A stretch of 64,000 bases of DNA, taken from positions 11,347 through 75,346 of the forward strand of contig CAYYRJ010000011.1 of NCBI GenBank assembly GCA_964474085.1, given 5' to 3'. The position numbers and the translations under genes are program-made. A model generated the notes under the pieces. It saw only the letters and a list, made by a program, of their open reading frames with translations, was not told the DNA's origin and did no database searches. The stretch's first letter is position 1. Each line of letters begins with the position of its first letter. This document shows, in pieces, positions 20,673 through 43,544 of this stretch. Origin of the DNA: an uncultured Planctomycetales bacterium. Its GTDB lineage: Bacteria > Omnitrophota > Gorgyraeia > Zapsychrales > JANLHA01.

Positions 20673-20917
20673 ATTAACCCCTCCCTTTCTAAGGCCTCGT
20701 GAACAGACTTAACATGGTGTCCCTTTAAAATGTTTCCTGGGTGCGGCTCATGAAGGAAAATTTTATGATTTGTCGCTTCATTAATAAATTTTCGCCGCGA
20801 TCCCGAGCCAGGAATTAAGTCATAGCCAAAATACCCTAATAGCCGGATTAGTTCATCCCAGGTAAAATCTTTAGGTTTAAGTCTAAACCGTTCAATTAGC
20901 TTCTCACGTGTTGACAT
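20669..20917 (-). CDS. hicA: HicA-family mRNA interferase toxin
   Basis: 82 aa. LIRLLGYFGYDLIPGSGSRRKF...HEPHPGNILKGHHVKSVHEAL matches the HicA/YcfA dsRBD-like fold motifs. Overlaps hicB by 4 nt. Confidence 0.7.
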   Translation of the reverse strand: MSTREKLIERFRLKPKDFTWDELIRLLGYFGYDLIPGSGSRRKFINEATNHKIFLHEPHPGNILKGHHVKSVHEALEREGLI

Positions 20918-21057
20918 TCTCTCTCACAAGGTCTATTGGGAGTATATAACATAAATTACTTTCGTGCAACTAAATTTAGTTGCATTATATCCCAATATTA
21001 AAAATTGTAAAGAAAAATATTTTTAACCCGACCTTCAGGATTTGAACCTGATTAATT

Positions 21058-22164
21058 TTATTTGTAACCCATTGGGAACGATGGGCTATCTGTTGAGGCG
21101 GGTGTCCGATGTGCCATATTTGTGCCAGCTTTCGGAAGATCGCTCAGGTTGAGCGACTGGACCGCACGCTGTTTATGGCTGCAACTGAGGTGGGAATAGC
21201 GCAGAGTCATTTCGATGGTCTTGTGGCCGAGCAGTTCTTTCACGGTAATTAGATCCACCCCGGCCATGACAAGTTGCGAGGCGAAGGTATGTCTAAGATC
21301 ATGAAACCGAAAGTTCTCAATCTTCGCCTTCCCCAAGGCAGTATGAAACGACTTTTTGATATCGTTAAACGGCTTGCCATCAAAGCTGGCAAAAACGTAT
21401 GGGCTTTCTGGATCCTTTCTGACGCGGTAAAGAATATCGCGCACAGCATCATTGATCGGGACCTCACGCTGTTCGCCGTTCTTGGTCTGTAAAATGTGAA
21501 TCAACCCGTGGGCCATATCAACATTATTCCATTTTAAATTAAACACCTCTCCCTTTCGCATCCCGGTGTTAATCGCAAACTGTACGATATCCTTTAAATG
21601 ATCTTCGCAATGGTCGAGTAGCCGCTGAATATCCTCCTTCTCAAGAAACCGGATCCGCTTATTATCCACCGGCAAAAATTTAAAACCATGAACAGGATTG
21701 CGGCCACCAAAATATTCCCACTCAATCGCCTTGTTAAACATATTTCGTAAAATACCCAAATCTTTGTTCACCGTGTTAGGTACGATCGGTTTTTGACTAC
21801 GTGGATTTGTGTGCTGTAGCCGCCAATCAACATATTTCTCGACGTCACGCTGAATGATCTCATGAAGATACTTACTACCAAAATAACTCGTAAGATGACG
21901 GACATTACTGATCGATGACTTATGCCATCCGCGCAAGGTCCTCTTGCAATGCCGCTCGAGATACTCCACAGCGAAATCTTTAAACTTGATCTTCTGCTCG
22001 CGCTTAATATCTAGGTGCTTGTTCTCCGCGACCAGAGTTAATCGCTTTTGAAGAATCTTCAAAGCGATTGCTTTATTAGGCCCGACCATTTCACGTTTGC
22101 GCACTCCTTCTGCGGTGAAATAATCAACACCCCAAACCTTTCCTCTTTGGAATACTCTTGACAT
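21058..22164 (-). CDS. int: Tyrosine-type site-specific integrase (phage integrase family)
   Basis: C-terminal catalytic region with R...HDLRHTFASQL...LGHKTIEMTLRYSH (R-H-R-Y tetrad context). An N-terminal SAM-like/arm-binding region. The 3' end contains the att-like core variant at 21108-21126. Confidence 0.85.
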   Translation of the reverse strand: MSRVFQRGKVWGVDYFTAEGVRKREMVGPNKAIALKILQKRLTLVAENKHLDIKREQKIKFKDFAVEYLERHCKRTLRGWHKSSISNVRHLTSYFGSKYLHEIIQRDVEKYVDWRLQHTNPRSQKPIVPNTVNKDLGILRNMFNKAIEWEYFGGRNPVHGFKFLPVDNKRIRFLEKEDIQRLLDHCEDHLKDIVQFAINTGMRKGEVFNLKWNNVDMAHGLIHILQTKNGEQREVPINDAVRDILYRVRKDPESPYVFASFDGKPFNDIKKSFHTALGKAKIENFRFHDLRHTFASQLVMAGVDLITVKELLGHKTIEMTLRYSHLSCSHKQRAVQSLNLSDLPKAGTNMAHRTPASTDSPSFPMGYK

Positions 22165-22228
22165 AGTTTAATTATAACACCCGATATAATGGGGTGTCAA
22201 TGCTGGCGCACCCTAGTATAATAGGTGC
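22165..22228. promoter_or_regulatory. Divergent promoter region for int and the XRE gene. Leftward: TTGACA (plus 22195-22200), 17 nt, TTATAAT (plus 22171-22177), ending about 7 nt from the int ATG. Rightward: TAGTATAAT 5 nt before the XRE ATG. Both transcripts are probably leaderless.
   Basis: Read directly from the sequence. The -35 context ggggtgtcaa is shared with the nrtR and hsdR promoters. Confidence 0.55.
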
Positions 22229-22441
22229 ATGAAAATTGAATTGCGATTTATTATCAGTCAAAAAATAAAAAAGATTAGATCAAAGCTAAAATTAACCCAA
22301 GAGCAACTTTCCGAAACTTCTGGCGTAGGGTATAAATATCTTCAAATGATTGAAGGGAGCAATCCCCCAAACATATCCTTGAAAACGATCGAAAAACTAG
22401 CCAAAGCCCTCAAGACCACCCCCGCAAACCTTCTTAAATAG
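22229..22441 (+). CDS. XRE-family HTH transcriptional regulator (candidate island master repressor)
   Basis: LKLTQEQLSETSGVGYKYLQMIEGSNPPNISLKTIEKLAKAL is a classic Cro/C1-type HTH. Divergent from int. Confidence 0.7.
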   Translation: MKIELRFIISQKIKKIRSKLKLTQEQLSETSGVGYKYLQMIEGSNPPNISLKTIEKLAKALKTTPANLLK

Positions 22442-22628
22442 CCATCTCTTTCACTTTCCGCCGCTCCAGCCACTCATCGATCTCTGATTTTCGGAATTTC
22501 ACCAGCCGCCCAACCTTGTAATACGGGATCTGCCGGCAATGTGTCCAGCTATAAATCGTACTAGCCCTTACATGTAAATACCGTGTGAGCTCGTGTATTC
22601 CCATCATATTTTCTATCTCATTTTTCAT
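22434..22628 (-). CDS. AlpA/excisionase-like DNA-binding protein
   Basis: 64 aa. ...IHELTRYLHVRASTIYSWTHCRQIPYYKVGRLVKFRKSEIDEWL is an AlpA/Xis-type HTH with its YxxxxxxFPxP-like pattern. Confidence 0.6.
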   Translation of the reverse strand: MKNEIENMMGIHELTRYLHVRASTIYSWTHCRQIPYYKVGRLVKFRKSEIDEWLERRKVKEMAI

Positions 22629-22639
22629 TGTAAATATAT

Positions 22640-23060
22640 GTAATTATTTAAGTTAAAGAAAATATACTAACAAAAATTGCAAGGAAATCGGAAAATCCAA
22701 GTTGTAAGTCGTAAATATATGAAATATAAAGAGTTAAGTTGTTTATGCCTGTAATTAGCACTTAGGTAAATTGCGCCTAAAGCATTGTAAATAAATGCTT
22801 TATGTTTTTACACATAAAATACCCTATATATTTCGCAATGAACACGCTTGTTCTATGGTCGCAATATATCTATCACCATACCAAGATCGCACACTCCTTA
22901 TAAAGAACTACTATTACTACGACGATCCATATCTGCCGGTAGAAGCAGTTTTTGCTGCTTCTACTCAGGCAGACATTATGGCGGAATTGCTCACCCACTC
23001 ATTTACTACGTTAATACGATGACTGTTTTTGAATATAAAAATTGCACACCTCCTCTTTTA
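22640..23060. promoter_or_regulatory. AT-rich non-coding region between the replicase and the excisionase. It carries a perfect 10-bp inverted repeat (gtagaagcag ... ctgcttctac, about 22925-22951) and short direct repeats (tcgcaat x3, tactac x4). Candidate replication origin.
   Basis: Seen in sequence. The position, immediately downstream of the pri-rep gene, matches PICI/satellite ori placement. Confidence 0.3.
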
Positions 23061-24815
23061 CTACAATAAATCTTCTTTATGATTTTCTTGAACTGGACTA
23101 AATAAGCTCACTTGAGAGGCAGCTTTATACAGATGATGTGTCTTGCTGCTTTTATCGACCAAAATAATTTTTGATTCTTCAATTAAACCTCTTAACGTTG
23201 TTTCTGAACAGATTTTTTGATCTTTCGCATATTTGATCAAAACCGGAACCGACACCCGATCCTGCTGAAAATGTTCAAAAAGCTGGACTAGCGTGCGATC
23301 ATCAAATTTCTTAACAAAATCGGTTATAAATTCAAAACAAAAGCTCTCCGGGTTTATTTTTGCTATAAATGGAGAGAACTTTTGTCTATTGCGATTTTTA
23401 TGACAGGAAATGGTAACACTAGAAAATGAACCTTCTAAAGTAATATGGGTATCAAGCCAAGCCTCCCAACGATATGATCCCGCAGCCATCTGACCACCAG
23501 TCTTAAAGTCTCTGGTAGCCTTGCGCCAATGATGAACAACTAAAATAGAGATGCTAAATTTAGCAATAAGCGTATTTAAGTATGCAATCAATTTCCCGAC
23601 CTGCTCTTGATTGCTTTCATCACCTGACCAAGCGTTCCCGAGAGGGTCTAGAATTAAAACATCTACTTCTAACGTCTCAAGCCATCCCTCGATCAACTTT
23701 TTACTCTCGTCATTTAGAAGATCCAGCGCTGGAATATATTTAACATACAAATTTTCAAAACTACCTGTTCTAAAGCCTGACATTTTTTTGAAACGTTCCC
23801 ATAATGCTGATTCGCCCATTTCTAAATCAAGATAAAGCACTTTGGCAGGCTTCACGTCAAACTTACCCATAAATTGCTCGCTCCCACTGGCTATATCTAA
23901 AGCTAAGTTTTGAACAAGAATACTTTTGCCAATATTTGGGGCGGCAGAAACCATTGCTTTTCCTTTTTTCTGAATGATGTCCTGAACATAATATTCAACT
24001 GGCGGAATGTCTTTTTTCAAGAACTCAGGCAAAGACAGAGGCGGGAGAATAAGAAGATTATCGGTAGGGCTGTTTAATTCTTTCTTGTGGTGAATCTCAA
24101 AAATACTTTTAACTATTGTCTCGACTTCAATTCCGGGCAAAGGTGGTTTATTTTTTGCATTAACTGCGTTCACTACCTCTAGGCACTCTTCAAAACATAA
24201 TCCATCGTTAATTAAAGATCCAGCTATTCGGGTTAGGCTGTCATTCCTGCTACCCTCAGTTACGCCATCATAAATGTCTTTTATTGGAACTTTTTCATCT
24301 TCACTATTTGCAAGAATCCATTCGGGAAGATCAGCAAGTTTTACATCATCCAAAGACTTGCCTGCGCACCAATGGTAGCTATTCCCGTTCTCATGAACAC
24401 TTGGCGACGCGACTACATATCCACCATCTCCGCGCAAATCGATCCCGGGCAAATTAGCTTTTTTCTGAAAATTCCTCGTTCCTGTCTTATGCTTGCAAAG
24501 AAGATGATACCCCCGCCCTGTCTTGGCTAACGGAGAATCTGAGACTTTGTAATTTTGTTGCGCTTCTGCAAATGCTTCTGGACTATCAAAATCGATAACA
24601 TCAATTCCGGAAATCTCCCCTGTTACAATGCCGATGTTTGCATTAGGCCATCGCTCAAACCAATCTTTAACCTCACTCTCCGTTGGTTTTCTTTTTTGAA
24701 ACTCCGCCCATGGAACAAGAGGCTCTTTCCCTCTCTCTCTGAGTGGAATTATTGATAACCCTTTTCTTAAATAATTGAGCGCCTGCTCAAGACAATTTGG
24801 AAGTGTTTGTTGCAT
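23061..24815 (-). CDS. Replication protein: an N-terminal bifunctional primase-polymerase (Prim-Pol) domain fused to a P-loop RepA/DnaB-like (AAA_25-type) helicase/ATPase
   Basis: The N-terminus LSIIPLRERGKEPLVPWAEFQKRKPTESEVKDWFERWPNANIGIVTGEISGIDVIDFD is Prim-Pol-like. The central Walker A APNIGKSILVQNLALDIASG and Walker B VLILDPLGNAW are RepA-like. Confidence 0.7.
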   Translation of the reverse strand: MQQTLPNCLEQALNYLRKGLSIIPLRERGKEPLVPWAEFQKRKPTESEVKDWFERWPNANIGIVTGEISGIDVIDFDSPEAFAEAQQNYKVSDSPLAKTGRGYHLLCKHKTGTRNFQKKANLPGIDLRGDGGYVVASPSVHENGNSYHWCAGKSLDDVKLADLPEWILANSEDEKVPIKDIYDGVTEGSRNDSLTRIAGSLINDGLCFEECLEVVNAVNAKNKPPLPGIEVETIVKSIFEIHHKKELNSPTDNLLILPPLSLPEFLKKDIPPVEYYVQDIIQKKGKAMVSAAPNIGKSILVQNLALDIASGSEQFMGKFDVKPAKVLYLDLEMGESALWERFKKMSGFRTGSFENLYVKYIPALDLLNDESKKLIEGWLETLEVDVLILDPLGNAWSGDESNQEQVGKLIAYLNTLIAKFSISILVVHHWRKATRDFKTGGQMAAGSYRWEAWLDTHITLEGSFSSVTISCHKNRNRQKFSPFIAKINPESFCFEFITDFVKKFDDRTLVQLFEHFQQDRVSVPVLIKYAKDQKICSETTLRGLIEESKIILVDKSSKTHHLYKAASQVSLFSPVQENHKEDLL

Positions 24816-25107
24816 TGGAATAGTGTCCCTTCACTTTTTCAGTCAATTCTTCGATTTTCTGGACTACAGCAAATCGCATTACTTCGTAAGTTTCTCGATC
24901 TATCGGGTAAAAAACGTTGATCTCTTTCCCGTTAGGCAAAATTTGTTTTGGGAATAACAATCTAATTTCTCCGTTTGGCTTTGTGTAAACAGCGATAGAG
25001 CTTAAGGCGAGCTTGCTATCGAAGAGAAAACCGGCAAAACCGATAAGACCTTTTGGGGTGGGTTTGATTGGATAAATGCTGATTTCTGTAATTACTGGTT
25101 CTGACAT
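24787..25107 (-). CDS. Hypothetical protein (106 aa)
   Basis: ORF overlapping the 5' end of the replicase gene. No motifs. Confidence 0.3.
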   Translation of the reverse strand: MSEPVITEISIYPIKPTPKGLIGFAGFLFDSKLALSSIAVYTKPNGEIRLLFPKQILPNGKEINVFYPIDRETYEVMRFAVVQKIEELTEKVKGHYSNATNTSKLS

Positions 25108-25209
25108 TTTTTTCTCACTTTTTAAAATAAAAAACCCGTGATTTATTCAGTCACGGGTAAGAATAGCAAACACTTTAGGTTGTTCGCTGTGTGTCACATA
25201 AATTAGTTG

Positions 25210-25806
25210 CTATTTTTTGAAAATAATATTCTTTATGGTTGTCTCCTTGAGATTATAAGGATCTCGCTTGATCGGGACTTCTTCCAAAGACCGCTTTCGT
25301 GTAGTCCACATGCCGGAGAAAGGTTTCTCCGCGACGAATTTGTGCTTAATCTTTTTATATATAATCGCCCCTTTAATACCTTCTGATCGGAGTTGTCGAT
25401 ATGCTTTTTTTATCCACAAATCTTTATTTCGATTGAATTCTCTAATACCGGTAACAGCGCCGTAAGACTTTTTGCTCCGCCTCAATTCCCTTTGACCAAT
25501 ACTCTTTGGACGGTAAGTAAAATATTTATACAGACAATCTACATCACTAATTTTCATTCTTACCTGTCTTTGGTTTATCTCAGATGGATAAGCAATTACA
25601 GTGTATCTTCGCTTTTCAATATCCATCATCCATGCCATAATTCCGGTATCTCTATCTTTGATAAGATTTGTTACATAATGGGCAGGGAATGGTTTTGCCA
25701 AAGGAATCCCATCCTTAAAACCAAATTTCTTTAATAGTTTTTTCCCAGCTTTTAAATATTCAGCTTTGGTTTGATAAACGTCCTTGATCTTCTTAAAACC
25801 ACCCAC
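25210..25806 (-). CDS. Hypothetical basic protein (198 aa)
   Basis: Lys/Arg-rich ORF. No recognised motifs. Confidence 0.35.
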   Translation of the reverse strand: MGGFKKIKDVYQTKAEYLKAGKKLLKKFGFKDGIPLAKPFPAHYVTNLIKDRDTGIMAWMMDIEKRRYTVIAYPSEINQRQVRMKISDVDCLYKYFTYRPKSIGQRELRRSKKSYGAVTGIREFNRNKDLWIKKAYRQLRSEGIKGAIIYKKIKHKFVAEKPFSGMWTTRKRSLEEVPIKRDPYNLKETTIKNIIFKK

Positions 25807-25839
25807 ATCTTCCTCACATTTTCAGTAAAAGTGCAGCCT

Positions 25840-26793
25840 TCAGCTCGAACCCGAAACGGTCGGAAATGTCCCGGTCTCTGTTTTTCCTAAAATCTCAAGT
25901 GGTTGAGGAGTTTGTAGGTCTCGCCAAAATTCCATTGCATCCGCAGTACGATACGAAACTCTACGTCGCAGTGCTTTCTCCAAGGCAAAACTATATGGCG
26001 ACTGAAGCTGCAAAGCCATCTCACGCGGTTTACCACTCAAAATCTCCTCCTGAGTAAACCTCAATTCTTTTGAGCATGCCAATTCAAGTAATAGAAGCCC
26101 TGCATGGTATATATCAATACGATGATCTATGGGGCCAAACTCATTAGGATTCAAAACTTCCGGGGGAACCATCCATTGCGCCCTCGTATTTCTTGCATCA
26201 ACCTCATGAAATAATTTTGCAACACCAAGATCACCAAGTTTAAACTGCATTATTTCCTGATTTGTTGGGACCATTTCATCTTTTACCAAAGCAGTAAATA
26301 CATTGGCGGAATGAATATCCTGATGAGCATAATTGTTAATATGAAGATAATGAACGACTTGCAAAAGTGATCTGGCTATGGGCATTAACCATGCTTGCCC
26401 AGCAAAATTCGGAATTGCAAATAGCTGTTTGACCGAACAGTAACATCGTTCGGTTATGATATAAAATGTATCTCTGTATTCAAACGCATCATAAACAAAA
26501 GTAATATGTGGATTACGGAGCTGTAAAAGTTTAATAAGCTCAGCTTGCGCATCTGCTTTTACTTTTTCATAAGCTCTCCCTGTCGGTTTTAAAACTTTAG
26601 CCGCTAGGTCATTTCCCCAAACATCTTTGCATGAATAAACAACCCCAAAATTCCCCTCACCAATTTTCTCCCCCATAGTATAAGTATTATTTGTCGCTAA
26701 ACTGGTTATGACTTCGCCCACAGATGGAGGAACCATCATCCTAACCTGGGGAATACTTTGGGGTGAAGCTGGCTCTGGTAACTGCTGAGTCAT
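25840..26793 (-). CDS. Atypical eukaryotic-like Ser/Thr protein kinase domain protein, last gene of the hsdRMS operon
   Basis: Gly-rich loop GEGNFGVVYS, VAIK-like LAAKVLK, catalytic loop HQDIHSANVF (Asp retained, Lys replaced by His), DFG-like DLGVAKL, and APE-like PPEVL. Confidence 0.6.
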   Translation of the reverse strand: MTQQLPEPASPQSIPQVRMMVPPSVGEVITSLATNNTYTMGEKIGEGNFGVVYSCKDVWGNDLAAKVLKPTGRAYEKVKADAQAELIKLLQLRNPHITFVYDAFEYRDTFYIITERCYCSVKQLFAIPNFAGQAWLMPIARSLLQVVHYLHINNYAHQDIHSANVFTALVKDEMVPTNQEIMQFKLGDLGVAKLFHEVDARNTRAQWMVPPEVLNPNEFGPIDHRIDIYHAGLLLLELACSKELRFTQEEILSGKPREMALQLQSPYSFALEKALRRRVSYRTADAMEFWRDLQTPQPLEILGKTETGTFPTVSGSS

Positions 26794-26799
26794 TTTTTA

Positions 26800-27981
26800 T
26801 CAATTCTCGCTAAACGCCTGATGAAGCAACGATTGAAATAAATGCTCGGCTTGGCGTAAGGATTCTGCCTGTACATAGTTAAAACGCTCCTGTTTTGTAA
26901 AAACATCAACAAACTTTTTCTGAAGTGATAGCGATGGAACGATGATCGGGATGTCAGCTAAATCTTTATAATAGATCGCAAATACACTCGTTGTTCCAGA
27001 TTTAATTCGTTCCAAATTTTGTTTCAGCCAGGGAGATTGGAATAAACCAATCATAAATTCTGGCGTTAACATCGACTTAAAACGTATTCGCATAATATTG
27101 TTATTAAATAATCGCACCCCATGCCGTTGGGTATAAAGAGCTGTCTTCCCGACCAATTCTTTAGAATTACGCGTATTAAATAAAAAATCTCCAAATTGAA
27201 GACTAAAGCTACGAACTTCGGTGTCTGTTGCCTCAACTCGCTTTAATTTATTTAAATCTAATGTGCCGTCACCAATAATTGAATCCATCCTCAAATATTC
27301 ATAAGGATAGCTGTTATTCATTTCAACTGCCCCACGTACAAGTCCAAGCTGATTAGAATCAACCATATCTCCAAATGCGACTTGTTCGTAGCTGGCTGCG
27401 GTTTCCTTCAAATCACCAAACATCTCAACAAATACAGCGGGAAGGAATGAATCGCTCATTTCAAGCACATATCTGCGGATACGACGAAGGCGGTCGGCTT
27501 GATCCAATACTTTTACAATCTGTTTTTGCTTGGAAAGAGGTGGATAATAAATACTGCAGTCTAAAAGACGTTCATTATTTAAAATTGGAACAAGAGCCTG
27601 ATTTGCGTTTCTTTCAATTCGTGGCTTATTAAATAAAAACCAATAATAAGCAAAATCACTATCAATTTCATCATTAAAATTTAGTGCTGTAATTTGTTGA
27701 TTTGAGGAAGATTCTCGACGCAATATCCCGACTCTTCCAATTTCTCCAATACATGTAACTAATAAGGTGCCCCGCTGAAGCACTTTAGCTTTACCTTCTT
27801 CTACCGCTTTAGCTGTGATTCGACGCGAAGCAACTAATAGATTCTTAGAATTACCAATATCTGATGGAGTATACCAATCAATATCTCCATTAAAATACGC
27901 TGGCTCTTTCGTTGGAGGTGTTGTACCTGTTTGCACTCCAGTGACAACTTCAGCTAATGGACAAACAGTCCAATTCTTCAT
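26800..27981 (-). CDS. hsdS: Type I restriction-modification specificity subunit HsdS
   Basis: 393 aa with two target-recognition-domain halves separated by conserved helical spacers. Overlaps hsdM by 4 nt. Confidence 0.75.
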   Translation of the reverse strand: MKNWTVCPLAEVVTGVQTGTTPPTKEPAYFNGDIDWYTPSDIGNSKNLLVASRRITAKAVEEGKAKVLQRGTLLVTCIGEIGRVGILRRESSSNQQITALNFNDEIDSDFAYYWFLFNKPRIERNANQALVPILNNERLLDCSIYYPPLSKQKQIVKVLDQADRLRRIRRYVLEMSDSFLPAVFVEMFGDLKETAASYEQVAFGDMVDSNQLGLVRGAVEMNNSYPYEYLRMDSIIGDGTLDLNKLKRVEATDTEVRSFSLQFGDFLFNTRNSKELVGKTALYTQRHGVRLFNNNIMRIRFKSMLTPEFMIGLFQSPWLKQNLERIKSGTTSVFAIYYKDLADIPIIVPSLSLQKKFVDVFTKQERFNYVQAESLRQAEHLFQSLLHQAFSEN

Positions 27982-29684
27982 ATCAATTCTTTCACTAACT
28001 TAATACTCTGATTAGCCACCATATCTAATGATTGAAGCCGCTCAAGAGTAACCCGTGGTTTCTCATAATAAATTTCATCCTGCTCAATCAAACGATACCT
28101 ACTGGATGACAGATCATATTTATTCGTTTTTAATTTATCCTTGGCTACCCAAAACTGTCGCGTGAGCTGGTTAATCTCTTTTTGAAGAGGTTCAATTTCT
28201 TTATGCAGATCATTCAATTTAGACGTGTCTGCGTCTAACGCTAACCGTGCCTTTTCATTACCATCATCCGCAATCACCTGTTCAAAAGTTAAACGATTCA
28301 CTTCTGCTAAAAGCACAAGGCGTTTCTTTTTTAAAGGGGTAATGCTTTCTTGAAGTTCTGCGAGCCTTTTTTCTCTTACCTGTGAAAATTTTTTATCAAA
28401 ACGGTTTCTCCAACACTCAAGAAGATCGGGAAGATCACTCTCATCAACTTTTTGACGCTTATCATCCAGCGAGAAGCCATCATGTTCCATATCATAAAAC
28501 CAAACTTTTTCCGTTGATGCCCCTCTGGTAAAAAACAACACAGCCGTTGATACTCCTGCATAAGGCCTGAATACACCAGACGGCATTGACACAACTCCAT
28601 CTAAACGGTTTTCCTCAATCAGTTTCTTTCTGATCTCCAAATGCGCCTGATTGGAGCCAAATAAAACACCATCTGGCACAATAACAGCTGCTCGGCCACC
28701 ATTCTCTAAAAGTCTTAGAAATAAATGCAAAAACAGCAGTTCCGTCTTTTTACATTTAGTCGGAAGAGTAGGATTAACATCAGATGAGTCTATTGCACCT
28801 TTAAAGGGTGGATTGGCTAAAATAATGTCGTACTTTCTTTCTTCGTTATATGCCTTTGATAGAGCGTCAGTATGTTTGAAGTTCGGCTGGGCGATACCAT
28901 GTAAAATAAGATTCATAGAACCGATGCGAAGCATTGTCATACCTGCGTCATTGTCATACGCAGTGATTGCTTCTTTTTGTAAGAATTCACTTTGTTCTTT
29001 GGTTAATTTGTCGCCGACTAATTTGTGTGGGAAACCATCTTCATCATAAGTAAGCAATTTAGGATCGGTATTCTTTTCTAAAATGTATTGATAGAAATTA
29101 ACCGGGAAACCACATGTCCCGGCCGCTGGGTCGCACATCTTCTCACCCGGGCGAGGATCGATCATCTGCACCATCATACGAATAATATGGCGCGGTGTTC
29201 TAAACTGGCCATTAGTACCTGCTATATTGAGCTTACTTAAAAGGTATTCATAAAGATCTCCCTGCACATCCTGATTTTGATTTGAAATTTGCATTTCATC
29301 AATCAGGCGACATGCTTCTATCAAAAGACTTGGGCGTTTAATCTTAAACTCAGCATTTTCCATCTGATCAGCAAATGATCCGCCTTCGCCTCCCAATTCT
29401 TTAATAAAAGGAAACACCTTTTCCTTAACTATCTTTAGAGCTTTTTCAGCATCTAAATTTGACCAATACGACCAACGCAATTCCTTGTCTTTAAAAATTG
29501 GCTCATATTTAAGTTTGCGTAACTTCGAGACTCGTTCTCGATCTTCTTCTGCTTCTTCCAATCGCTTTAGAAACAACAAAAAAGAAAGCTGCTCAATGGC
29601 ATCAAGTGGATTAGCTAATCCACCCGACCATAATTTGTCCCATAAAGAATCGACCTTTGACCGTAAATTTGAATCAGTTAGCAT
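27978..29684 (-). CDS. hsdM: Type I restriction-modification N6-adenine DNA methyltransferase subunit HsdM
   Basis: HsdM N-terminal domain (RSKVDSLWDKLWSGGLANPLDAIEQLSFLLFLKRL). SAM motif DPAAGTCGF. Catalytic motif IV ILANPPFKG. Confidence 0.9.
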   Translation of the reverse strand: MLTDSNLRSKVDSLWDKLWSGGLANPLDAIEQLSFLLFLKRLEEAEEDRERVSKLRKLKYEPIFKDKELRWSYWSNLDAEKALKIVKEKVFPFIKELGGEGGSFADQMENAEFKIKRPSLLIEACRLIDEMQISNQNQDVQGDLYEYLLSKLNIAGTNGQFRTPRHIIRMMVQMIDPRPGEKMCDPAAGTCGFPVNFYQYILEKNTDPKLLTYDEDGFPHKLVGDKLTKEQSEFLQKEAITAYDNDAGMTMLRIGSMNLILHGIAQPNFKHTDALSKAYNEERKYDIILANPPFKGAIDSSDVNPTLPTKCKKTELLFLHLFLRLLENGGRAAVIVPDGVLFGSNQAHLEIRKKLIEENRLDGVVSMPSGVFRPYAGVSTAVLFFTRGASTEKVWFYDMEHDGFSLDDKRQKVDESDLPDLLECWRNRFDKKFSQVREKRLAELQESITPLKKKRLVLLAEVNRLTFEQVIADDGNEKARLALDADTSKLNDLHKEIEPLQKEINQLTRQFWVAKDKLKTNKYDLSSSRYRLIEQDEIYYEKPRVTLERLQSLDMVANQSIKLVKELI

Positions 29685-29685
29685 T

Positions 29686-32442
29686 TTAAGCCTCTATCTT
29701 TTCAGTGAACTCCAACAAATCACGCACATCATTGGGAGTAAAAAGTTTATCGACAGCGTTTCTACCAAAATTGGTTAACGGCGCTTCATAAAGATCCGCC
29801 TCACTAAGTTTTCGTTTTTGTAAAAATACACTCTGGACAGCACGCAAAAATAAGATTTGATCAGCGTTATAATGATGTTCAGTAATAAAATTCTCGAAAC
29901 AACGCCCCACAACAGCAGCATACTCGGGAATAGTATCGAGCGATAATATATGGCGGATAAACCCTAAGAAGCTATTAACCTTTAAGCCATACGCACGCTT
30001 AATATTCAAAGGACTCAGTTGGATATCTCCTCCCGATAAACCCTCGTGCAAAGCCCGCTCTAAAGAAATCAAATCTTCTTCACTTACTTCCCTGCCTTGA
30101 CGAATCGCTTCAATAGCAGGATGGTTTTCTATAATCGAAAGAACTTTTGCTTCGACCCGCTTTCTATACTCTTCAACATAAATCTGCTCACCACCCTCGC
30201 CAATTGAGATAAGGCCGCGCGTATCAATAAAATCAGGGAGGTCGATTGAAATAAAAGTGTTTTGTCGGTTCCGACGATTACGCATAACCCCTGCCAAATC
30301 TGTGATGATCCGACGTAATTCTTTGGGTGACGCATTTGCCAATTTATCGGATAAACATAATTCAGCCGACTTTGAATACTTTTCATCTTTTAAAATATAT
30401 TCGGGCAAAAGACTGACATCTTCGGCAATTGAACGCAATAATTCAGGGGATACTTTACCAGTGAATACTTGATAACGAAGCCGTTCGACTTTGCTGGTAA
30501 ATGTTTCGGCCGCAACATCCACCTCCCCAACAAATCTTAACAACGGCCCAATTCTAAGACGCAAGAATTCAACTTTATCATTAGTTAATAATGTCCAGTA
30601 TTCATCACCCCAAACATGTTCAATCTCTACCCAGACCCTTCTTACTGAAAAGCAATCCGTCGGGATACGATTCACCATGGCCCGCAAATCTGATATGACC
30701 TGTGCATAATCCTCAGCCTGTATTGATTTATCCAGCGATTCTAAAATTTTTAATCTGGTGTTAAAAATTGACACCAGAACAGGGATTACCGGAGAGGCTC
30801 CGCCTTTAGGGTCTTTTTGAAAATCATTCTGCCAGAAATCGATAATTTTAAATTCTGTTTTCTTGCCATCTGGCAATCTTTCGGAATACATACAAACAGC
30901 ATTGCTTCTTGTGCCGCGCCCTATCATCTGCCACATTTTGATTTGCGATTGAACGGGTTTCATGAAAACCAAGTTCACCACCTCGGGGACATCAATGCCG
31001 GTGTCGAGCATATCAACAGAGATAGCAATCCTTGGCAAATTGTTCTTTTTGAATTTTGTAATTAGTCCATCCCCATAACTACCGTCACGGACACGTTCTG
31101 TGCTAGATGTTATAACCTGCACTAAATCTAATTGCTGAGGATACATTTCTTCAAAAATTTCACGGATTCGCTCTGCGTGTTCCTTGGTCATGGCAAAAAT
31201 AATCGTCTTTCCCGGAAGCTGACCAGATTGATCTTTTAAACACGCTTCCCATATCTCTTCCCATTGCTTACGAAGGGTGTCTTTGTTACTGACCTCCACT
31301 TCAATATCTGTTCCGGAATAATCGATGTCGTCCGGGTCAATGCCTTGAGCGATCAAAGCATTTTTGTCCTCTTCGCTTAATTCAATGCCTTTAATTCCTT
31401 TACGCTGAAACCCTGTCTGGGCTTGATATAAACTAAAATTGACGAGATATTCTTCCCTTACAGCAGTTTTATAGTCATATAAAAAAGTCGGAGTGCTATT
31501 TTGGCAACCAAAAACCCCGAAAGTATCTCTATCTATAAAAGTGGCTGGTGTGGCTGTAAGGCCGACCATACGTGCGTCAAAATAATCCATGACTTCTGAG
31601 AAACGATGAAAGATTGACCGATGGGCTTCATCAAAAATAATCAGATCAAAGAAACCCGGGCTAAACTTTGTATAGCAAACATTCATCGTTTGTTCAGTCG
31701 CCACAAACAAACGCTTTGTCGTATCGATGTTACGGGTATAAATGCGATCTCGAGGCTCATTAGGTAAATGCGCTTTGAACCCATCAGATAACGCCTGCTC
31801 AACCAGCGCATCACGATCAGCTAAAAAGAGAACATTTCTCGCTTGGTTCGTTTTTAAAAATATATCAATCAATGCCATTGTTGTACGCGTTTTACCCGTT
31901 CCTGTTGCCATTACCAAAAGCGCTCGTCGCCTGCCTTCTTCAAAAACTTCACAAACCCTGCGCACAGCTTCCTGCTGATAAGGGCGATTAGCAATAGTCC
32001 TATTGATCAAAGTTTCATTTAGTGATTGCTGATTTTGACGGAGGAAAAGAAGGCGGGTTAAATCGTCTGGACTAAAAAATCCGGCAACCAATCTCGGATG
32101 GGCAAGACCAATTTCCCAGAAATAAGTATTAAGACCATTCGACATAAATCCGAATGGCGTAAATTCTTGATTCTTACTGATGTAATTTAAATAATATCGT
32201 AACTGTTCATCTGCTTCCCTCGGGCTACGGCTCATTTTCTTGGCTTCTACAACAGCCAAGACATTGTTACGGGAGTCGTACAAGCAATAATCGGTCACGC
32301 CATTCCATGGTTCTTTGTCATAGCCGTCAACAGGCACTTCCCTGCGGACTTTTGTGAGATCGTTTAAATCCCATCCAGCTGATGTTAAAAGCGGATCAAT
32401 TATTTTGATACGTGTTTTTGCTTCATTTAATTCATCTGGCAT
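29686..32442 (-). CDS. hsdR: Type I restriction enzyme endonuclease/translocase subunit HsdR
   Basis: N-terminal HsdR_N nuclease region (KTRIKIIDPLLTSAGWD). SF2 helicase motifs MATGTGKTRT (I), IIFDEAHRS (II) and a QxxGR-type motif VI region. Confidence 0.9.
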   Translation of the reverse strand: MPDELNEAKTRIKIIDPLLTSAGWDLNDLTKVRREVPVDGYDKEPWNGVTDYCLYDSRNNVLAVVEAKKMSRSPREADEQLRYYLNYISKNQEFTPFGFMSNGLNTYFWEIGLAHPRLVAGFFSPDDLTRLLFLRQNQQSLNETLINRTIANRPYQQEAVRRVCEVFEEGRRRALLVMATGTGKTRTTMALIDIFLKTNQARNVLFLADRDALVEQALSDGFKAHLPNEPRDRIYTRNIDTTKRLFVATEQTMNVCYTKFSPGFFDLIIFDEAHRSIFHRFSEVMDYFDARMVGLTATPATFIDRDTFGVFGCQNSTPTFLYDYKTAVREEYLVNFSLYQAQTGFQRKGIKGIELSEEDKNALIAQGIDPDDIDYSGTDIEVEVSNKDTLRKQWEEIWEACLKDQSGQLPGKTIIFAMTKEHAERIREIFEEMYPQQLDLVQVITSSTERVRDGSYGDGLITKFKKNNLPRIAISVDMLDTGIDVPEVVNLVFMKPVQSQIKMWQMIGRGTRSNAVCMYSERLPDGKKTEFKIIDFWQNDFQKDPKGGASPVIPVLVSIFNTRLKILESLDKSIQAEDYAQVISDLRAMVNRIPTDCFSVRRVWVEIEHVWGDEYWTLLTNDKVEFLRLRIGPLLRFVGEVDVAAETFTSKVERLRYQVFTGKVSPELLRSIAEDVSLLPEYILKDEKYSKSAELCLSDKLANASPKELRRIITDLAGVMRNRRNRQNTFISIDLPDFIDTRGLISIGEGGEQIYVEEYRKRVEAKVLSIIENHPAIEAIRQGREVSEEDLISLERALHEGLSGGDIQLSPLNIKRAYGLKVNSFLGFIRHILSLDTIPEYAAVVGRCFENFITEHHYNADQILFLRAVQSVFLQKRKLSEADLYEAPLTNFGRNAVDKLFTPNDVRDLLEFTEKIEA

Positions 32443-32689
32443 TGGGGTATATGCTCTCTGATCTTTAACTTACTACGGGCGATGTATTCGCCGATTTATC
32501 ATGATACCTTCCGGGTCATCCACTGCCACCAACTTTAAAGCCCGGTTACCTATATCCGGGCCAAGTATTCAACGGTGTATGTATCTGCTGAGATCATTAA
32601 AATTCCGCTATGGGCTATTCAAAATATTCAGTATTGTAACATTGTTACCTTTTTCCTGCCACCATTTCCATCCGATAAGTCTATTGCCT

Positions 32690-32722
32690 CATTATATATA
32701 AACCACCGTACAGGGGTGTCAA
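32690..32722 (-). promoter_or_regulatory. Sigma70-like promoter for the hsdRMS-kinase operon: TTGACA (plus 32717-32722), about 17-nt spacer, ATATATAAT
   Basis: Reverse strand reads ctTTGACAcccctgtacggtggtttATATATAATgag. Shares the ggggtgtcaa -35 context with the nrtR and int promoters. Confidence 0.5.
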
Positions 32723-32748
32723 AGGGAGGATTTTGGTATGCCAAAAAT

Positions 32749-32767
32749 GTGCCAGATTTGTGCCAAC
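32749..32767. repeat. Right copy of the perfect 19-bp direct repeat tgtgccagatttgtgccaa (candidate att core). It is embedded in three 11-bp periods beginning TGCCA.
   Basis: Identical to 9874-9892. The reverse-strand translation of the flank again gives an integrase-tail-like VGTNLAH. Confidence 0.75.
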
Positions 32768-32834
32768 TTTTCATCAAAAATGGCCTAAATTCATCAAAAT
32801 TGGTAGTAGTTGGAGATTTGCAGAAGGCAAACAA

Positions 32835-32870
32835 AAACCCAGAATCCTCGTCGGAAACTGGGTTTTTATT
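32835..32870 (+). terminator. Possible rho-independent terminator: aacccag, 15-nt loop, ctgggtt, then TTTATTT
   Basis: Stem-loop plus T-run seen in sequence. Lies between the two islands. Confidence 0.3.
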
Positions 32871-32917
32871 TGGTTGCGGGGACAGGATTTGAACCTGTGA
32901 CCTTCAGGTTATGAGCC
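32871..32917 (-). repeat. 47-nt partial copy of the tRNA-Met 3' half (anticodon loop to CCA), the left att direct repeat of the tRNA-integrated island
   Basis: tggttgcggggacaggatttgaacctgtgaccttcaggttatgagcc is identical to 44556-44602 inside the intact tRNA. Confidence 0.85.
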
Positions 32918-33036
32918 GCCGAAAAGAAATAATTTCAACCCGATTTTCCCGTTTTTTACCGTTGGAGTTAGGCAATACTGTAAGCCTTCCTCCTTTCTGG
33001 GTTTTGACTGAATTAATATTACCTACGCACAAATAA

Positions 33037-34998
33037 TTACTGTCGAATTCTAGACGCATTTTGACAACTTGCCTTATAATTACCCCATAACTTTTTCAAA
33101 GGCCAAAAAATAAAATATAATATTGGTAGCGCAGCTAAAACATCACGAATTATTTGCTGATAATCCCCACAATTAAATATTTTACAATAACCCCACGCTA
33201 CCAACAAGGAACCCATCCCACAAATAGGCAATGTCTTAAGCAGTCCCCGCAGCAAAGCACCTAAAGCATCCCTTTTAATTTTAGCCGCCTTAAAATTGTT
33301 TAATTCTTTTTCTCGTTCTACTGATTTAATTCGTTCTTGATTAGTTTCTTCTTCCGCTCGCTTGATTCTTTCTTTAGCATCAGACAACTGCTCAGAAACC
33401 TCTATAGTGCTTGCTTGATACAATCTATTAATCCTCAAGGCCAAATTGCTGTCGTGCGCTTTTCCTTCTAATCTCGCCTTTGCAATCTCTTTAACGAGTT
33501 TCTTAACTTCCTCCGAAGGTAAGTCAGCGGCCCTTTCATTAATTTTATCCAACAATTGTAAATCCTGCAAAATATAAGTACTGCTTGAAGGCAAACATTC
33601 ATTGAGTAATAGCTTGGATAATAATGGGGCAAAATTGGTAGCATCAGAAATTGGTTCCGAATTATTTAGGGCAAGAATCTCTATCAATACCGAAACAGAT
33701 AGCAGTTTGGGCAACTCATGGTGCGGAGTTTGTTCTAACACAGATGCTTGCAAAGACCTATCCAAACTTAGTATCCAAGCTTTCTCATTTTTCCCCCTTA
33801 AGTAATCAACAGTATGAATTAAACAAGTATCGTGATTTAACGCCGCCTGCCCTTTTTTCCCTTTCCATTTCGCACGAAATTTTAAGGCAAATTTTTGTAT
33901 TTGATTTTTTAAATGTTCATCCTGCTCAGATTTTATTTGAGTATCTAGAAATTCTTTATCGTCTTCCAAAACTATATTAAGCCCGTCGGGCAATGTCCGA
34001 GGTATATTTAAAAGAGAATCGAAGAATCTGTTATAATCTTCTTCATTTTTACAACCTCTATCTCGTGCAGTCGCAATAAAATCGTCTCTGACATCCTGAA
34101 TCACTTCATCATCAAAAGCTTTAATTACATGAATCGCATCCCCTCGTTTTGCGTTCAAAGCTCGGGCGTATTCCTCTGTCGTGCAATGCAGATAAATTAA
34201 TTTTGAGTTAAGAAACTTGAATGCACCTTCTAAGGCCTTGATTGATTGCCACAATCTACTACTTTCCAGCGATAAAGCGAACAAAACATTTGTGTCAAAA
34301 ATGAATGTTGAATTACTTAATTCTTCAATTGTAATAGGGTCTATCCCAATGTCAGCAGCCACTAAACGTGCTGAAAACATCGCCTGACTCATCAAAAATA
34401 AATATTGTTGGTCTCGAATATTATCACTTGAGAGGAAACTTACGAAACCAGCAACTAACGCCTGCTTATGCTGCTCTAGTTTATTATTCTTTATGGAATT
34501 GGAAAGCAACTGTTCAATCGTCTGTGAGGAAGCCGCAATTCTTCTATTACCTTTACTCGATATTTTAATCCATTCATCACAATAAAATCCCAGGAAATCC
34601 GCAGAAGACTCTCTGAACCACATTTTAAGTATCTTTTTCGGGAGGGTGGCTGGGAAATGGCGCTCTAAAACTTCCCGCAACAGGCCTCTTTCTGTATTGA
34701 TTTCCCTACTAATGTCTTTGCGACTATTATTCTCTAACTGCCATGTCTTCCCATTCGTTCTAACTTTGCCAGATTGTTGTAAAAATTGAAGCCCGTCAAT
34801 AACCAATTCCGATGAGACACTTTTGTTCCCAATCATTTTTGCCGACTCAGACACCAACTGTTGCACCTCAACGGGCGATTCTATGGAATACATAACTTTT
34901 GCTATCAGCTCAGCAAAAGCTAAAGTTTTAAGTGGTTTTGCAGAAGTGCCATATTTCAAATTTACAGTTACAAGCTGTCTCGTGTTAAACTGCATCAT
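33037..34998 (-). CDS. Large hypothetical protein (653 aa) with an internal PIN-like motif and C-terminal transmembrane helices
   Basis: Internal FIFDTNVLFALSLESS resembles a PIN-domain first acidic motif. C-terminal hydrophobic segments (LPICGMGSLLVAWGY...ALPILYFIFWPL). Confidence 0.35.
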   Translation of the reverse strand: MMQFNTRQLVTVNLKYGTSAKPLKTLAFAELIAKVMYSIESPVEVQQLVSESAKMIGNKSVSSELVIDGLQFLQQSGKVRTNGKTWQLENNSRKDISREINTERGLLREVLERHFPATLPKKILKMWFRESSADFLGFYCDEWIKISSKGNRRIAASSQTIEQLLSNSIKNNKLEQHKQALVAGFVSFLSSDNIRDQQYLFLMSQAMFSARLVAADIGIDPITIEELSNSTFIFDTNVLFALSLESSRLWQSIKALEGAFKFLNSKLIYLHCTTEEYARALNAKRGDAIHVIKAFDDEVIQDVRDDFIATARDRGCKNEEDYNRFFDSLLNIPRTLPDGLNIVLEDDKEFLDTQIKSEQDEHLKNQIQKFALKFRAKWKGKKGQAALNHDTCLIHTVDYLRGKNEKAWILSLDRSLQASVLEQTPHHELPKLLSVSVLIEILALNNSEPISDATNFAPLLSKLLLNECLPSSSTYILQDLQLLDKINERAADLPSEEVKKLVKEIAKARLEGKAHDSNLALRINRLYQASTIEVSEQLSDAKERIKRAEEETNQERIKSVEREKELNNFKAAKIKRDALGALLRGLLKTLPICGMGSLLVAWGYCKIFNCGDYQQIIRDVLAALPILYFIFWPLKKLWGNYKASCQNASRIRQ

Positions 34999-35080
34999 TT
35001 AATCCTTCAGAATTATAATTATACGTTACCGATAAATGGAAGTTTCAAACCATTTCTCTGCTTTCACCGTCGGGAATTGA

Positions 35081-35911
35081 TTAATTATTGGTTCCCATCG
35101 TCGCTTCTTGATGAGCGATTTTTGGAACCATCTCATTCATCGTATAATGAACAAACCAATCTCCTAACTCTGTCAACACATACTCATCCTTATCATCAAA
35201 TGCGGATTTTACTTGTCCTGTCCTTCTGGGGCGTCTTCGTTTAGGCAGGAAATTACCCGAGGCATCTGTTTCCCTGTGTTGTCTGATAACGTGCCCGACA
35301 CTCAAATCGTGAATCAATTTCTTAAAGAGGTCTGCCTCGGCTGAATTTTCCCTGACTCTATTCCCATGAATTTCTTGCCACATTTCATATCTCGTTAATC
35401 CTGGGTCTTTATAAATTAACTGAACTATTTTAAAATGGCCTTCGCTGTATTGGTCAATCCACTCAATAAACATCCGTAATATATCGTCGCCACAAATTTT
35501 CTGGGCACCCGCAGCATTACAAAGAAGGTTGCGGATTAAAATCCTTTTTTCTTCGCTCTCAGCGGCACTCCAATCCCTGAAGCATTTCTTTATCAACTTA
35601 AGATATTCAGGACTTTGAATTCGTTCTTGAACTCGTTCATCGTTTCTATCAAGTCGAAGCATTACCTCCATCAAAGTTTTTCCAATTTCTTTAATTTCAT
35701 CTTCTTGAAGTTTAAGCCAAGAAGCAAATATCTTATTAAATCTTTCTTGCTCTGCCTCAGACCATGCCCCTGCACCTCCACCAATGGCCCCACCAGCATA
35801 AGGAATTAAGCCTCCTAAAAAAGCGAGCGCAAATCTGGCAACTTTAGAACCCGCACCCGAATTAAGGGCGTCTTCCATTTCTTTTTTAACATCATCATTC
35901 GGTTGAGACAT
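35081..35911 (-). CDS. Hypothetical protein (276 aa) with a Gly/Ala-rich N-terminal segment
   Basis: ORF. GGLIPYAGGAIGGGAGAWS near the N-terminus. No catalytic motifs recognised. Confidence 0.35.
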   Translation of the reverse strand: MSQPNDDVKKEMEDALNSGAGSKVARFALAFLGGLIPYAGGAIGGGAGAWSEAEQERFNKIFASWLKLQEDEIKEIGKTLMEVMLRLDRNDERVQERIQSPEYLKLIKKCFRDWSAAESEEKRILIRNLLCNAAGAQKICGDDILRMFIEWIDQYSEGHFKIVQLIYKDPGLTRYEMWQEIHGNRVRENSAEADLFKKLIHDLSVGHVIRQHRETDASGNFLPKRRRPRRTGQVKSAFDDKDEYVLTELGDWFVHYTMNEMVPKIAHQEATMGTNN

Positions 35912-35922
35912 CTTTTATCCGC

Positions 35923-36297
35923 TCATTTCTTGTAATATTGTTTTATTCTTTCCCTGTCTTCAACTTCCTTATCTGTCTTGAAATAAATCTCGACAAACTC
36001 AATCAAATCCTCGTCGGGAAAATAGGCATAAATAATTCTTATGCCGCTTTTGACTCCTCGACCTTTTAATGCTTTGCATGCAAACTTTGTGACTTTGAGA
36101 ATGTGCGGATATTCAATTCCTAAGTTGTCTATCCGTTCAATGCCGTCATAATTTTGCTGCCCCAATTTATGGTACATTTTCAAGGCAGCATCAATTAAAT
36201 TTTCTATGTCTTCTTCTAGTGTCCGAAATTTCTTGAGTAATTTTTTTAATTCTCGGTCAAACTCAGGAAGATTCCTTCTCTGCTTGAATACCGTCAT
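35923..36297 (-). CDS. Putative small toxin (124 aa) cognate to the upstream Panacea-domain antitoxin. A RelE/ParE-like fold is possible.
   Basis: Overlaps the 3' end of the antitoxin gene by 35 nt. Basic, with a C-terminal IIYAYFPDEDLIEFVEIYFKTDK beta-strand pattern reminiscent of RelE/ParE-superfamily toxins. Confidence 0.35.
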   Translation of the reverse strand: MTVFKQRRNLPEFDRELKKLLKKFRTLEEDIENLIDAALKMYHKLGQQNYDGIERIDNLGIEYPHILKVTKFACKALKGRGVKSGIRIIYAYFPDEDLIEFVEIYFKTDKEVEDRERIKQYYKK

Positions 36298-37075: not shown

Positions 37076-37424
37076 ATTTTCTACTCCTGCACCTATAAAT
37101 TAGCACATGTTAGTTTTGTTGTCAATAGATTGTTAGGAATGTTAACAGAATGCCCTTTAATTGAGCGGAAATGGCCTTTCCTGCCACGATTTTCTTCTAA
37201 ACCAGGGTTGGGTGCCCCTCAAGGCGCAAAACGCCTCTAGGAACCGATTTTCGACCTTTTGAGCTTTTGAACAAAGAACCTAAATTCCAGGTTCTCTTTT
37301 GCGTCATTGCAACCCCTACCAGACCTTTAAGCCACTAAGGAGGGTCAAGGTTGTGGGCAAACTGAGTGAATGATTTAGCCGTTAAAGGAAAATTTTTCAC
37401 GAAAGTGAAATAGTTACTCTGTGA

Positions 37425-40741: not shown

Positions 40742-40750
40742 ATTACTGCG

Positions 40751-42602: not shown

Positions 42603-42619
42603 AACAACTCCTCACCAAA

Positions 42620-43534: not shown

Positions 43535-43544
43535 CCAATAATTT

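Follow-up and report, generated by a model that had tools for sequence, protein, structure and literature searches.

A Hanks-type protein kinase clade recurrently encoded at the 3' end of restriction-modification operons of several types

We analyzed a 64,000-nt stretch of contig CAYYRJ010000011.1 (hereafter, the window) in which a gene for a stand-alone Hanks-type protein kinase follows the three genes of a Type I restriction-modification (R-M) operon. Four genes of the open reading frame (ORF) list lie head-to-tail on the minus strand: hsdR (29686-32442), encoding a Type I restriction subunit of 918 aa; hsdM (27978-29684), encoding an N6-adenine DNA methyltransferase subunit of 568 aa; hsdS (26800-27981), encoding a specificity subunit of 393 aa with two target-recognition domains (TRDs); and the kinase gene (25840-26793), encoding 317 aa. 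All four were also assigned with Pfam and PADLOC, and hsdR with NCBIfam as well. A first-pass annotation of this DNA had described them as tightly packed on one strand, and the ORF list bears this out: hsdR and hsdM are 1 nt apart, the hsdS start overlaps the hsdM stop (-4 nt), and 6 nt separate hsdS from the kinase gene. The same gene order occurs in an independent public assembly (locus L118).

The predicted products make the locus a Type I R-M system by definition, since an HsdR with a nuclease and a superfamily 2 (SF2) motor, an HsdM and a two-TRD HsdS are encoded together. HsdR matched ResIII, Helicase_C, HSDR_N and EcoEI_R_C in Pfam and consists of an N-terminal PD-ExK nuclease followed by the SF2 helicase and an EcoEI_R_C tail, with a Walker A motif (MATGTGKT), a DEAH box (FDEAH) and a nuclease motif (D...EAK) in its translation. 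It matched the PADLOC model REase_I at E = 8e-117 and scored 238 bits against NCBIfam restrict_EcoAI, under that model's cut-off; judged by these matches, it is most like the EcoAI group (Type IB). HsdM matched N6_Mtase (5e-54) and HsdM_N in Pfam and MTase_I in PADLOC (2e-159), and its match to BREX methyltransferase models was weak (24.7 bits vs a cut-off of 500). HsdS matched Methylase_S over two stretches and the PADLOC model Specificity_I (2e-78).

A candidate sigma-70 promoter of the hsd-kinase operon lies on the minus strand at 32691-32722, about 250 nt upstream of the hsdR ATG, with perfect TTGACA (32717-32722) and TATAAT (32691-32696) boxes. The annotation had placed a single strong promoter at 32690-32722; the perfect consensus boxes are indeed there, but their 20-nt spacer is longer than optimal, and we treat the site as a candidate. 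Perfect matches of the TTGACA-N20-TATAAT type numbered three in the window vs 0.12 expected in a pattern search, the other two forming a divergent control region beside an integrase gene. A generic promoter and terminator scan was uninformative (20 sites vs 22.5 expected); it overlooked the hsd promoter, because the spacer exceeds 18 nt, as well as a terminator with a 9-nt loop. This intrinsic terminator (25125-25158, minus strand) has an 8-bp GC-rich stem and the 9-nt loop followed by UUUUUUAUUU (-11.8 kcal/mol, z = -2.8), and is the first strong one downstream of hsdR. At the other end, a terminator hairpin beside a tRNA-Met repeat (32835-32865, minus strand; -16.9 kcal/mol, z = -4.1) should, from its predicted fold, insulate the hsd operon against read-in from upstream.

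Between the kinase gene and the downstream terminator lies a fifth co-oriented gene, orf198 (25210-25806, minus strand), which starts 33 nt past the kinase stop with a GTG codon and a GAGGA ribosome-binding site, encodes a basic, lysine/arginine-rich protein of 198 aa and is called in L118 too. No stable hairpin was found in the spacer before it (fold z = +1.0), and orf198 is probably read through from the hsd operon. The kinase gene, annotated earlier as the last of its operon, is thus the last cargo gene and at the same time the fourth of five. The orf198 product had no match in Pfam, PADLOC, PHROG or NCBIfam and a single homologue (69% identity; L119:7978-8574) among 5.8 billion clusters. 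This homologue adjoins the primase and integrase genes of another element, whose cargo is a KAP NTPase and a radical-SAM protein, and both genes lie between variable cargo and the primase gene of an integrase-bearing element. Because the sole homologue sits in an element with different cargo, we assign orf198 to the element backbone, which leaves hsdR-hsdM-hsdS-kinase as the cargo. A role of orf198 as a partner of the kinase was rejected, as its homologue stands beside the primase gene of a kinase-free element.

The kinase is a genuine eukaryotic protein kinase (ePK)-fold protein with all catalytic residues. It matched Pfam Pkinase (PF00069) at E = 1.7e-27 (96.9 bits, cut-off 31.7), a profile of its family found RAF/TKL kinases as the closest solved structures in the PDB (1e-19), and Foldseek matches of its AlphaFold model were all ePK kinase domains (probability 1.0). 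The model itself is moderate (pLDDT 70, TM 0.4), was built from a shallow alignment of 31 sequences and was used for fold class only. The translation contains GEGNFGVVY, AAKVLK (with K66), E85, HQDIHSAN (D159 and N164), DLG (D188) and PPE (E212), together with the alphaF Asp in D227-I-Y-H-x-G and the subdomain-XI Arg R282. In a family alignment of 31 relatives from many phyla, 63-86% identical to the window kinase, GEGNFGVVY, AAKVLK and the residues K66, E85, D159, N164 and D188 were invariant, and DLG was replaced by DFG in some members. The profile and structure comparisons thus recovered the Hanks-type core that the annotation had read in 25840-26793.

The annotation had also singled out the non-canonical catalytic loop, and the alignment upholds it as a family trait: HQDIHxxN was invariant in the 31 relatives. 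Compared with HRDLKxxN, every member has Gln for Arg and, at D+2, His for Lys. The first replacement makes these proteins non-RD kinases; in the second, His stands in for the gamma-phosphate lysine. From its conserved residues, the kinase is probably catalytically active.

An exhaustive search at E < 1e-30 returned about 132 clusters (50% identity), nearly all of them single-domain proteins of 270-330 aa, and the family as a whole has more than 1200 members, with a conserved N-terminal GEVITS motif. No NCBIfam model passed its cut-off for the kinase. Its best matches among PADLOC defence models were mad6 (4e-34) and PD-T4-6 (6e-20). No homologues were found in INPHARED phages or IMG/VR, which led us to reject a phage origin or an anti-defence kinase, and PLSDB held one distant plasmid match (30% identity).

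The gene contexts of the closest relatives tie the clade to which the window kinase belongs to R-M operons. The annotation's idea that the kinase belongs with its operon called for recurrence in homologous islands, and a survey found the kinase gene at the 3' end of an R-M operon in 11 of the 12 distinct clade loci, compared with 5 of the 79 loci outside the clade (Fisher p = 1e-9; the test ignores relatedness, but no fewer than eight different R-M operons contribute). A lack of co-occurrence across homologous islands can therefore no longer be held against that idea. In a neighbour-joining tree, the R-M-linked kinases formed one contiguous clade, and in every linked locus the kinase gene was on the same strand as the R-M genes, with gaps of -4 to 155 nt; in six loci the junctions were tight or overlapping (-4 to 8 nt). 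The link had been described as one to Type I operons, which proved too narrow: the partners also include DpnII-type, HinfI-type and other Type II systems and a PLD-SNF2 enzyme with an Eco57I-like methylase. We conclude that the R-M link is genuine for this clade and agnostic to R-M type.

The linked loci differ widely in what lies upstream of the kinase gene. Type I genes precede it at L081 (hsdM-hsdS; kinase 88% identical to that of the window, gap 4 nt), L083/L084 (hsdS; 85%, gap 8 nt), L087 (a helix-turn-helix (HTH) gene, hsdR, hsdM/S and a half-hsdS; 79%, 4-nt overlap) and L002 (hsdR and hsdM/S; 76%, 1-nt overlap). Restriction enzymes named DpnII and HinfI occur at P0015 (Dam-type methylase, DpnII and N6_N4 methylase; 80%, gap 85 nt) and in the L088 group (HTH, HinfI and two methylases; 78%, gap 106 nt). 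Methylase genes lie upstream at L082 (two N6_N4 methylases around a gene without assignment; 82%, gap 155 nt), L114 (an N6_N4 methylase; 77%, gap about 94 nt) and L001 (two methylases and a 183-aa gene; 76%, 4-nt overlap), and at L094 a PLD-SNF2 nuclease-helicase is encoded with an Eco57I/TaqI_C methylase (74%, gap 62 nt). Near-clade exceptions had plasmid-like (KfrA, RepA/integrase) or housekeeping contexts. The clade is marked by an N-terminus of MTQQLPQP (residues 1-8), conserved at the DNA level too, and by the substitutions K122, Q123, S142, S162, L169, I181 and E237, which are rare or absent in solo members.

Downstream of the R-M-linked kinases, genes were common only to closely related loci. 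The variable sites include L083:1547-2263, L087:6750-8618, L002:6374-7442 and L088:5240-5416, and the 3' neighbours include a HEPN_RiboL-PSP gene overlapping the kinase stop and ORFs of 120, about 235 and about 52 aa common to L087, L002 and L088. This variability suggests further stacked accessory modules.

Comparison of the linked loci indicates that kinase and restriction genes have different histories. Where the partner is a Type I system, the kinases were 72-88% identical and the adjacent HsdM proteins only 23-36%, save for the pair L087/L002 at 73%; the kinases being similar and the HsdM proteins divergent, the partners must have been swapped repeatedly. The HsdS tails at these loci were of three unrelated types. 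DNA similarity between loci started and stopped at the borders of the kinase gene (25900-26740), with the exception of L114 and L094, where a remnant of about 40-70 nt of the 3' end of a window-type hsdS lies directly before the kinase ATG (L114:1076-1144 and L094:7763-7803, corresponding to 26794-26865 in the window). The L114 remnant is broken by stop codons, and at both loci another methylase gene (Type II or Eco57I-like) now lies upstream of the remnant. It follows that either the kinase gene stayed while the R-M module was replaced, or it moved together with an hsdS tail. We read the remnants as a probable recombination scar of R-M module replacement, and the clade as a whole appears, from these comparisons, to have been joined repeatedly by recombination to the 3' ends of methylation-based restriction operons, whatever their type. 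The loci thereby show how integrative elements shuffle their R-M cargo and accessory genes at hsdS tails that are conserved.

The wider family presents a different picture. A first context test, in which 80 species-representative genome loci were searched by tblastn with the window HsdR, HsdM and HsdS, found homologues near the kinase gene in only two. This result was misleading, the sampling having passed over Type II partners and the close clade, and the reading of no R-M association drawn from it was overturned by the contexts of the closest relatives described above. About 85% of the sampled family members are nevertheless solo, with neither a neighbour nor a small flanking ORF that is conserved. 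When all neighbouring ORFs were clustered, no conserved partner emerged, the top clusters being antisense ORFs within the kinase gene, and tblastx comparison of the 500-nt flanks yielded neither an element nor a small ORF that was conserved. A Pfam census of the three upstream genes and the one downstream gene returned mostly unrelated housekeeping genes and a few mobile or toxin genes. Since the wider family is mostly solo, the function of the kinase should be independent of R-M. Among the solo members, several metagenome-assembled genomes of Candidatus Poribacteria (L048, L051, L052, L070, L071 and L074) carry several paralogous copies with partly shared flanks, and split tblastn matches suggest frameshifted copies at L055, L071, L073, L074, L075 and L078.

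Among the immune systems of bacteria, restriction-modification is the commonest. To our knowledge, its backup mechanisms have been worked out for very few cases, mainly PrrC and PARIS. The PrrC anticodon nuclease is embedded in the Type IC R-M locus EcoprrI and is thought to act when restriction fails, and the immunity-suicide coupling hypothesis (Makarova-Koonin) concerns effectors embedded in R-M loci in this manner. The locus described here resembles prrC in that a gene for a non-restriction effector lies inside an hsd operon and is co-inherited with it, a likeness confined to the embedded position. It differs in that PrrC is an ABC-ATPase/anticodon nuclease, whereas the protein studied here is a Hanks-type kinase that also occurs with Type II and other R-M systems and is widely solo. 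In the literature searched, coverage of which was incomplete, no paper described a stand-alone Hanks-type kinase gene that recurs at the 3' end of classical R-M operons of Type I or Type II. The association is specific and recurrent, and its underlying concepts, a kinase joined to methylation-based defence and an effector embedded in an R-M locus, have precedents.

Kinases are known from several defence systems, and we compared the locus with each of them. The S/T/Y kinases in PglW, DndF and MADS have been proposed as backup effectors, and in MADS the kinase is required for defence. MADS is the closest in layout, with a Ser/Thr kinase gene operonic with a Type I-like methylase (MAD2) and an HsdS-like subunit (MAD5), and MAD6 gave the best PADLOC match to the window kinase domain, as noted above. 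MAD6, however, has about 610-660 aa with extra domains, and the window locus encodes a classical HsdR. Membership in MADS, for which MAD6, MAD7 and MAD8 are mandatory under the MacSyFinder rule, was rejected: the kinase scored 35.7 bits against the NCBIfam model antiphage_MADS6 (cut-off 460), and its neighbours had no mad7 or mad8 match in PADLOC. PglW and DndF likewise join an S/T/Y kinase module to DNA-modification-based defence, but as multidomain proteins of 1400-1600 aa (NERD nuclease, pseudokinase, kinase and sensor domains), unlike the bare 300-aa domain found here. Pgl/BREX type 2 is defined by PglW (NERD, pseudokinase and kinase, about 1500 aa) with PglX, PglY and PglZ; the window kinase is a single-domain protein of 317 aa and PglX and PglZ are not in the locus, so we rejected this assignment. 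DndGH is also absent from the locus.

Stand-alone eukaryotic-like Ser/Thr kinases are defence or abortive-infection genes in the cases of PD-T4-6 (E. coli) and Stk2, the abortive-infection kinase of Staphylococcus. At least 15 PD-T4-6 models matched the window kinase (best 5.7e-20), and Stk2 matched at E = 0.002; because the generic Pkinase model scores better (1.7e-27), the PD-T4-6 match is not specific. Neither has been described as R-M-operonic, and the window family differs from them in its HQDIHxxN loop and GEVITS motif. CapK/CapS resembles the present case in that a kinase gene adjoins diverse immune operons and controls them by phosphorylation. CapK, however, belongs to the anti-sigma-factor (GHKL) type of kinase, acts on a STAS-domain substrate and has its gene upstream of the controlled operons; membership was rejected because its fold differs and a CapS-like gene is absent here.

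We tentatively propose that the kinase is an autonomous effector that is co-expressed and co-transferred with restriction and forms a backup or abortive layer. As a sensor-effector in its own right, it would be expressed from a transcript that also carries the restriction genes, probably through translational coupling to them, and every restricting cell would keep a low standing dose of it. When a phage escaped or swamped restriction, the kinase would phosphorylate conserved host or phage proteins, leading to growth arrest or abortive infection, and in this way a backup layer would be co-inherited with first-line R-M. The remarks of a 2025 R-M review on accessory genes fit such an autonomous backup effector, and so do the immunity-suicide coupling hypothesis and the backup role proposed for the kinases of PglW, DndF and MADS. 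Two alternatives would tie the kinase to the restriction enzyme itself, and the combination of type-agnostic linkage and a mostly solo family disfavours both, the one needing a conserved contact with the restriction complex and the other a common phospho-target among R-M subunits; with both disfavoured, the autonomous effector is favoured.

In the first of these, which we consider unlikely, the resident R-M complex or its activity would keep the kinase inactive, as a strict PrrC-like guard, until a phage anti-restriction factor (DNA mimic, S-adenosylmethionine (SAM) hydrolase or Stp-like peptide) disabled restriction and so released it. The placement of the gene within R-M operons, like prrC in EcoprrI, its tight or overlapping junctions at six loci (-4 to 8 nt) and the conservation of R-M linkage across the clade would all suit a guard, and the seven clade-specific substitutions together with the MTQQLPQP N-terminus could form an interface. 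Such an interface would have to serve structurally unrelated partners, namely Type I pentamers, Type II dimers with DpnII or HinfI and a PLD-helicase enzyme; a conserved direct contact is hard to picture even among the Type I systems, where adjacent HsdM proteins are mostly 23-36% identical. Most family members, moreover, have no R-M neighbour, and the kinase lacks an extra domain for sensing. Slightly less probable still is a regulatory kinase whose targets would be restriction subunits, methylases or controller proteins and whose action would adjust the alleviation of restriction, the establishment in new hosts or the protection against self-cleavage. Threonine phosphorylation of EcoKI HsdR in vivo gives this idea a precedent, although the review that reports it states that HsdR of Types IB and IC was not phosphorylated (Loenen et al. 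2013), and the window HsdR is closest to Type IB. CapK/CapS-like kinase-substrate pairs also control adjacent immune operons, though with a different kinase fold, and establishment control would be useful to a mobile module, yet a phospho-target common to Type I, Type II and PLD-helicase systems is improbable, the solo majority has nothing nearby to regulate and HTH controller genes are present in only some loci.

An autonomous kinase could also owe its position to mobility rather than to cooperation. An addiction toxin or selfish passenger, in the form of a toxic or neutral mobile gene that gathers at the promoter-distal end of R-M operons, would gain constitutive low expression and hitch-hike on mobile defence cargo without functional cooperation. 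The gene invariably occupies the 3' edge of the operon, a place that tolerates insertions, homology at the DNA level does not reach beyond the gene body, the family is mostly solo, and the surroundings include plasmid-like contexts beside KfrA and RepA as well as the integrative element described here. Linkage in 11 of 12 loci to at least eight R-M operons at translational-coupling distances is, however, far more specific than random insertion, comparison of flanks by tblastx and of downstream genes found no conserved antitoxin-like partner, and the catalytic residues are under strong purifying selection, all of which leaves an addiction toxin or selfish passenger improbable to us. A bolder form of the effector proposal, doubtful but deserving mention, holds that the clade is a universal R-M companion that reads an outcome common to all restriction (for example, restriction failure, anti-restriction factors, SAM depletion or restriction-made DNA ends) and arrests the cell by phosphorylation. 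If true, this would give PrrC a kinase counterpart that works alike with R-M systems of Type I, Type II and the helicase-nuclease kind, and abortive infection coupled to restriction would gain a new class.

Several observations weigh against an autonomous defence effector and deserve to be set out together. Most solo members are surrounded by housekeeping genes, and they show partial grouping by taxon (Acidobacteriota, Betaproteobacteria); a kinase of cellular signalling, with no part in defence, could be distributed in this way too. Kinase identities of 60-88% across phyla are unusual for fast-evolving defence proteins, and the matches to defence hidden Markov models cover the generic kinase domain only and fail the curated NCBIfam cut-offs. 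The His in place of the catalytic-loop Lys could make the activity or the substrate class atypical. The clade loci are not phylogenetically independent, even though they include eight or more different R-M operons. Co-transcription of hsdRMS with the kinase gene is something we infer from spacing only, and we likewise infer the activity of the kinase, its defence role, its trigger and its substrates. In a further rival reading, the protein would be a cellular signalling kinase unrelated to conflict, whose R-M neighbourhood reflects a few related mobile elements that happened to be sampled. Solo members beside GcpE, FolB, ribonucleotide reductase and glutamate synthase, and their partial clustering by phylum, agree with that explanation, which we nonetheless regard as very unlikely: the kinase lacks a domain for sensing or regulation, gene order around it varies even inside single phyla, the clade spans different phyla and pairs with different R-M systems, and unrelated mobile carriers are already suggested by the differences in its downstream genes and in the element backbones. 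The gene in the window, moreover, lies inside a mobile island region rich in defence and toxin-antitoxin genes.

A role for the autonomous kinase in defence would add protein phosphorylation to the effectors of classical R-M loci and make this clade a candidate second defence layer coupled to DNA restriction. As a small, easily expressed protein repeatedly joined to unrelated R-M operons, the kinase provides a handle on the coupling of immunity to dormancy or suicide. For annotation, the work defines an unnamed family of more than 1200 members that is recognizable by its HQDIHxxN loop and lacks an NCBIfam model.

The hsdRMS-kinase operon is the cargo of an integrase/primase element of about 11.9 kb inserted at tRNA-Met. 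Two islands lie in tandem there, A at 32918-44555 and B, which contains the operon, at about 21036-32870. The intact tRNA-Met gene predicted by ARAGORN (44556-44632, minus strand) is the integration target of the array, and an exact 47-nt direct repeat of its 3' part (44556-44602) marks the att boundary between the islands (32871-32917, minus strand). Each island has its own tyrosine integrase gene, at 43545-44444 in A and 21058-22164 in B, and the enolase gene at 45033-46307 marks the chromosome backbone. The backbone of island B (21036-25107, minus strand except for the XRE gene) was delineated with Pfam, PHROGs, exact matching and the L118 gene calls. It comprises an exact 15-nt tRNA T-arm remnant (21036-21050) 8 nt from the integrase stop, the tyrosine integrase gene (21058-22164, minus), an XRE regulator gene (22229-22441, plus), an excisionase-like HTH gene (22434-22628, minus) and a PrimPol-AAA_25 primase/helicase gene (23061-24815, minus). 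The interval between the integrase and XRE regulator genes contains an overlapping, divergent pair of perfect TTGACA...TATAAT promoters (22158-22200), which, from their layout, look like the control switch of the integrative element.

Island A, whose genes span 33037-44444, encodes besides its integrase an AAA_17 protein, a 500-aa GNAT protein, an ASCH protein, a serine resolvase, a GmrSD-like DUF262-HNH Type IV enzyme (41358-42602) and an HTH-SocA/Panacea antitoxin (36263-37075), whose gene overlaps that of its 124-aa partner, a putative toxin (35923-36297). ORFans of 653, 276 and 304 aa in this island had no match in the Pfam, NCBIfam and PADLOC/PHROGs libraries applied to them. Directly outside the integrase end of island B is a HicA/HicB toxin-antitoxin pair (about 19722-20920; L118:11852-13047), and the public contig L118 starts just upstream of hsdR, near the 47-nt repeat. 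Immediately upstream of the PrimPol gene of island B, and overlapping it, a gene on the minus strand (24787-25107) encodes a 106-aa SpoVG-like protein, under the Pfam cut-off, which is an unusual partner for a primase.

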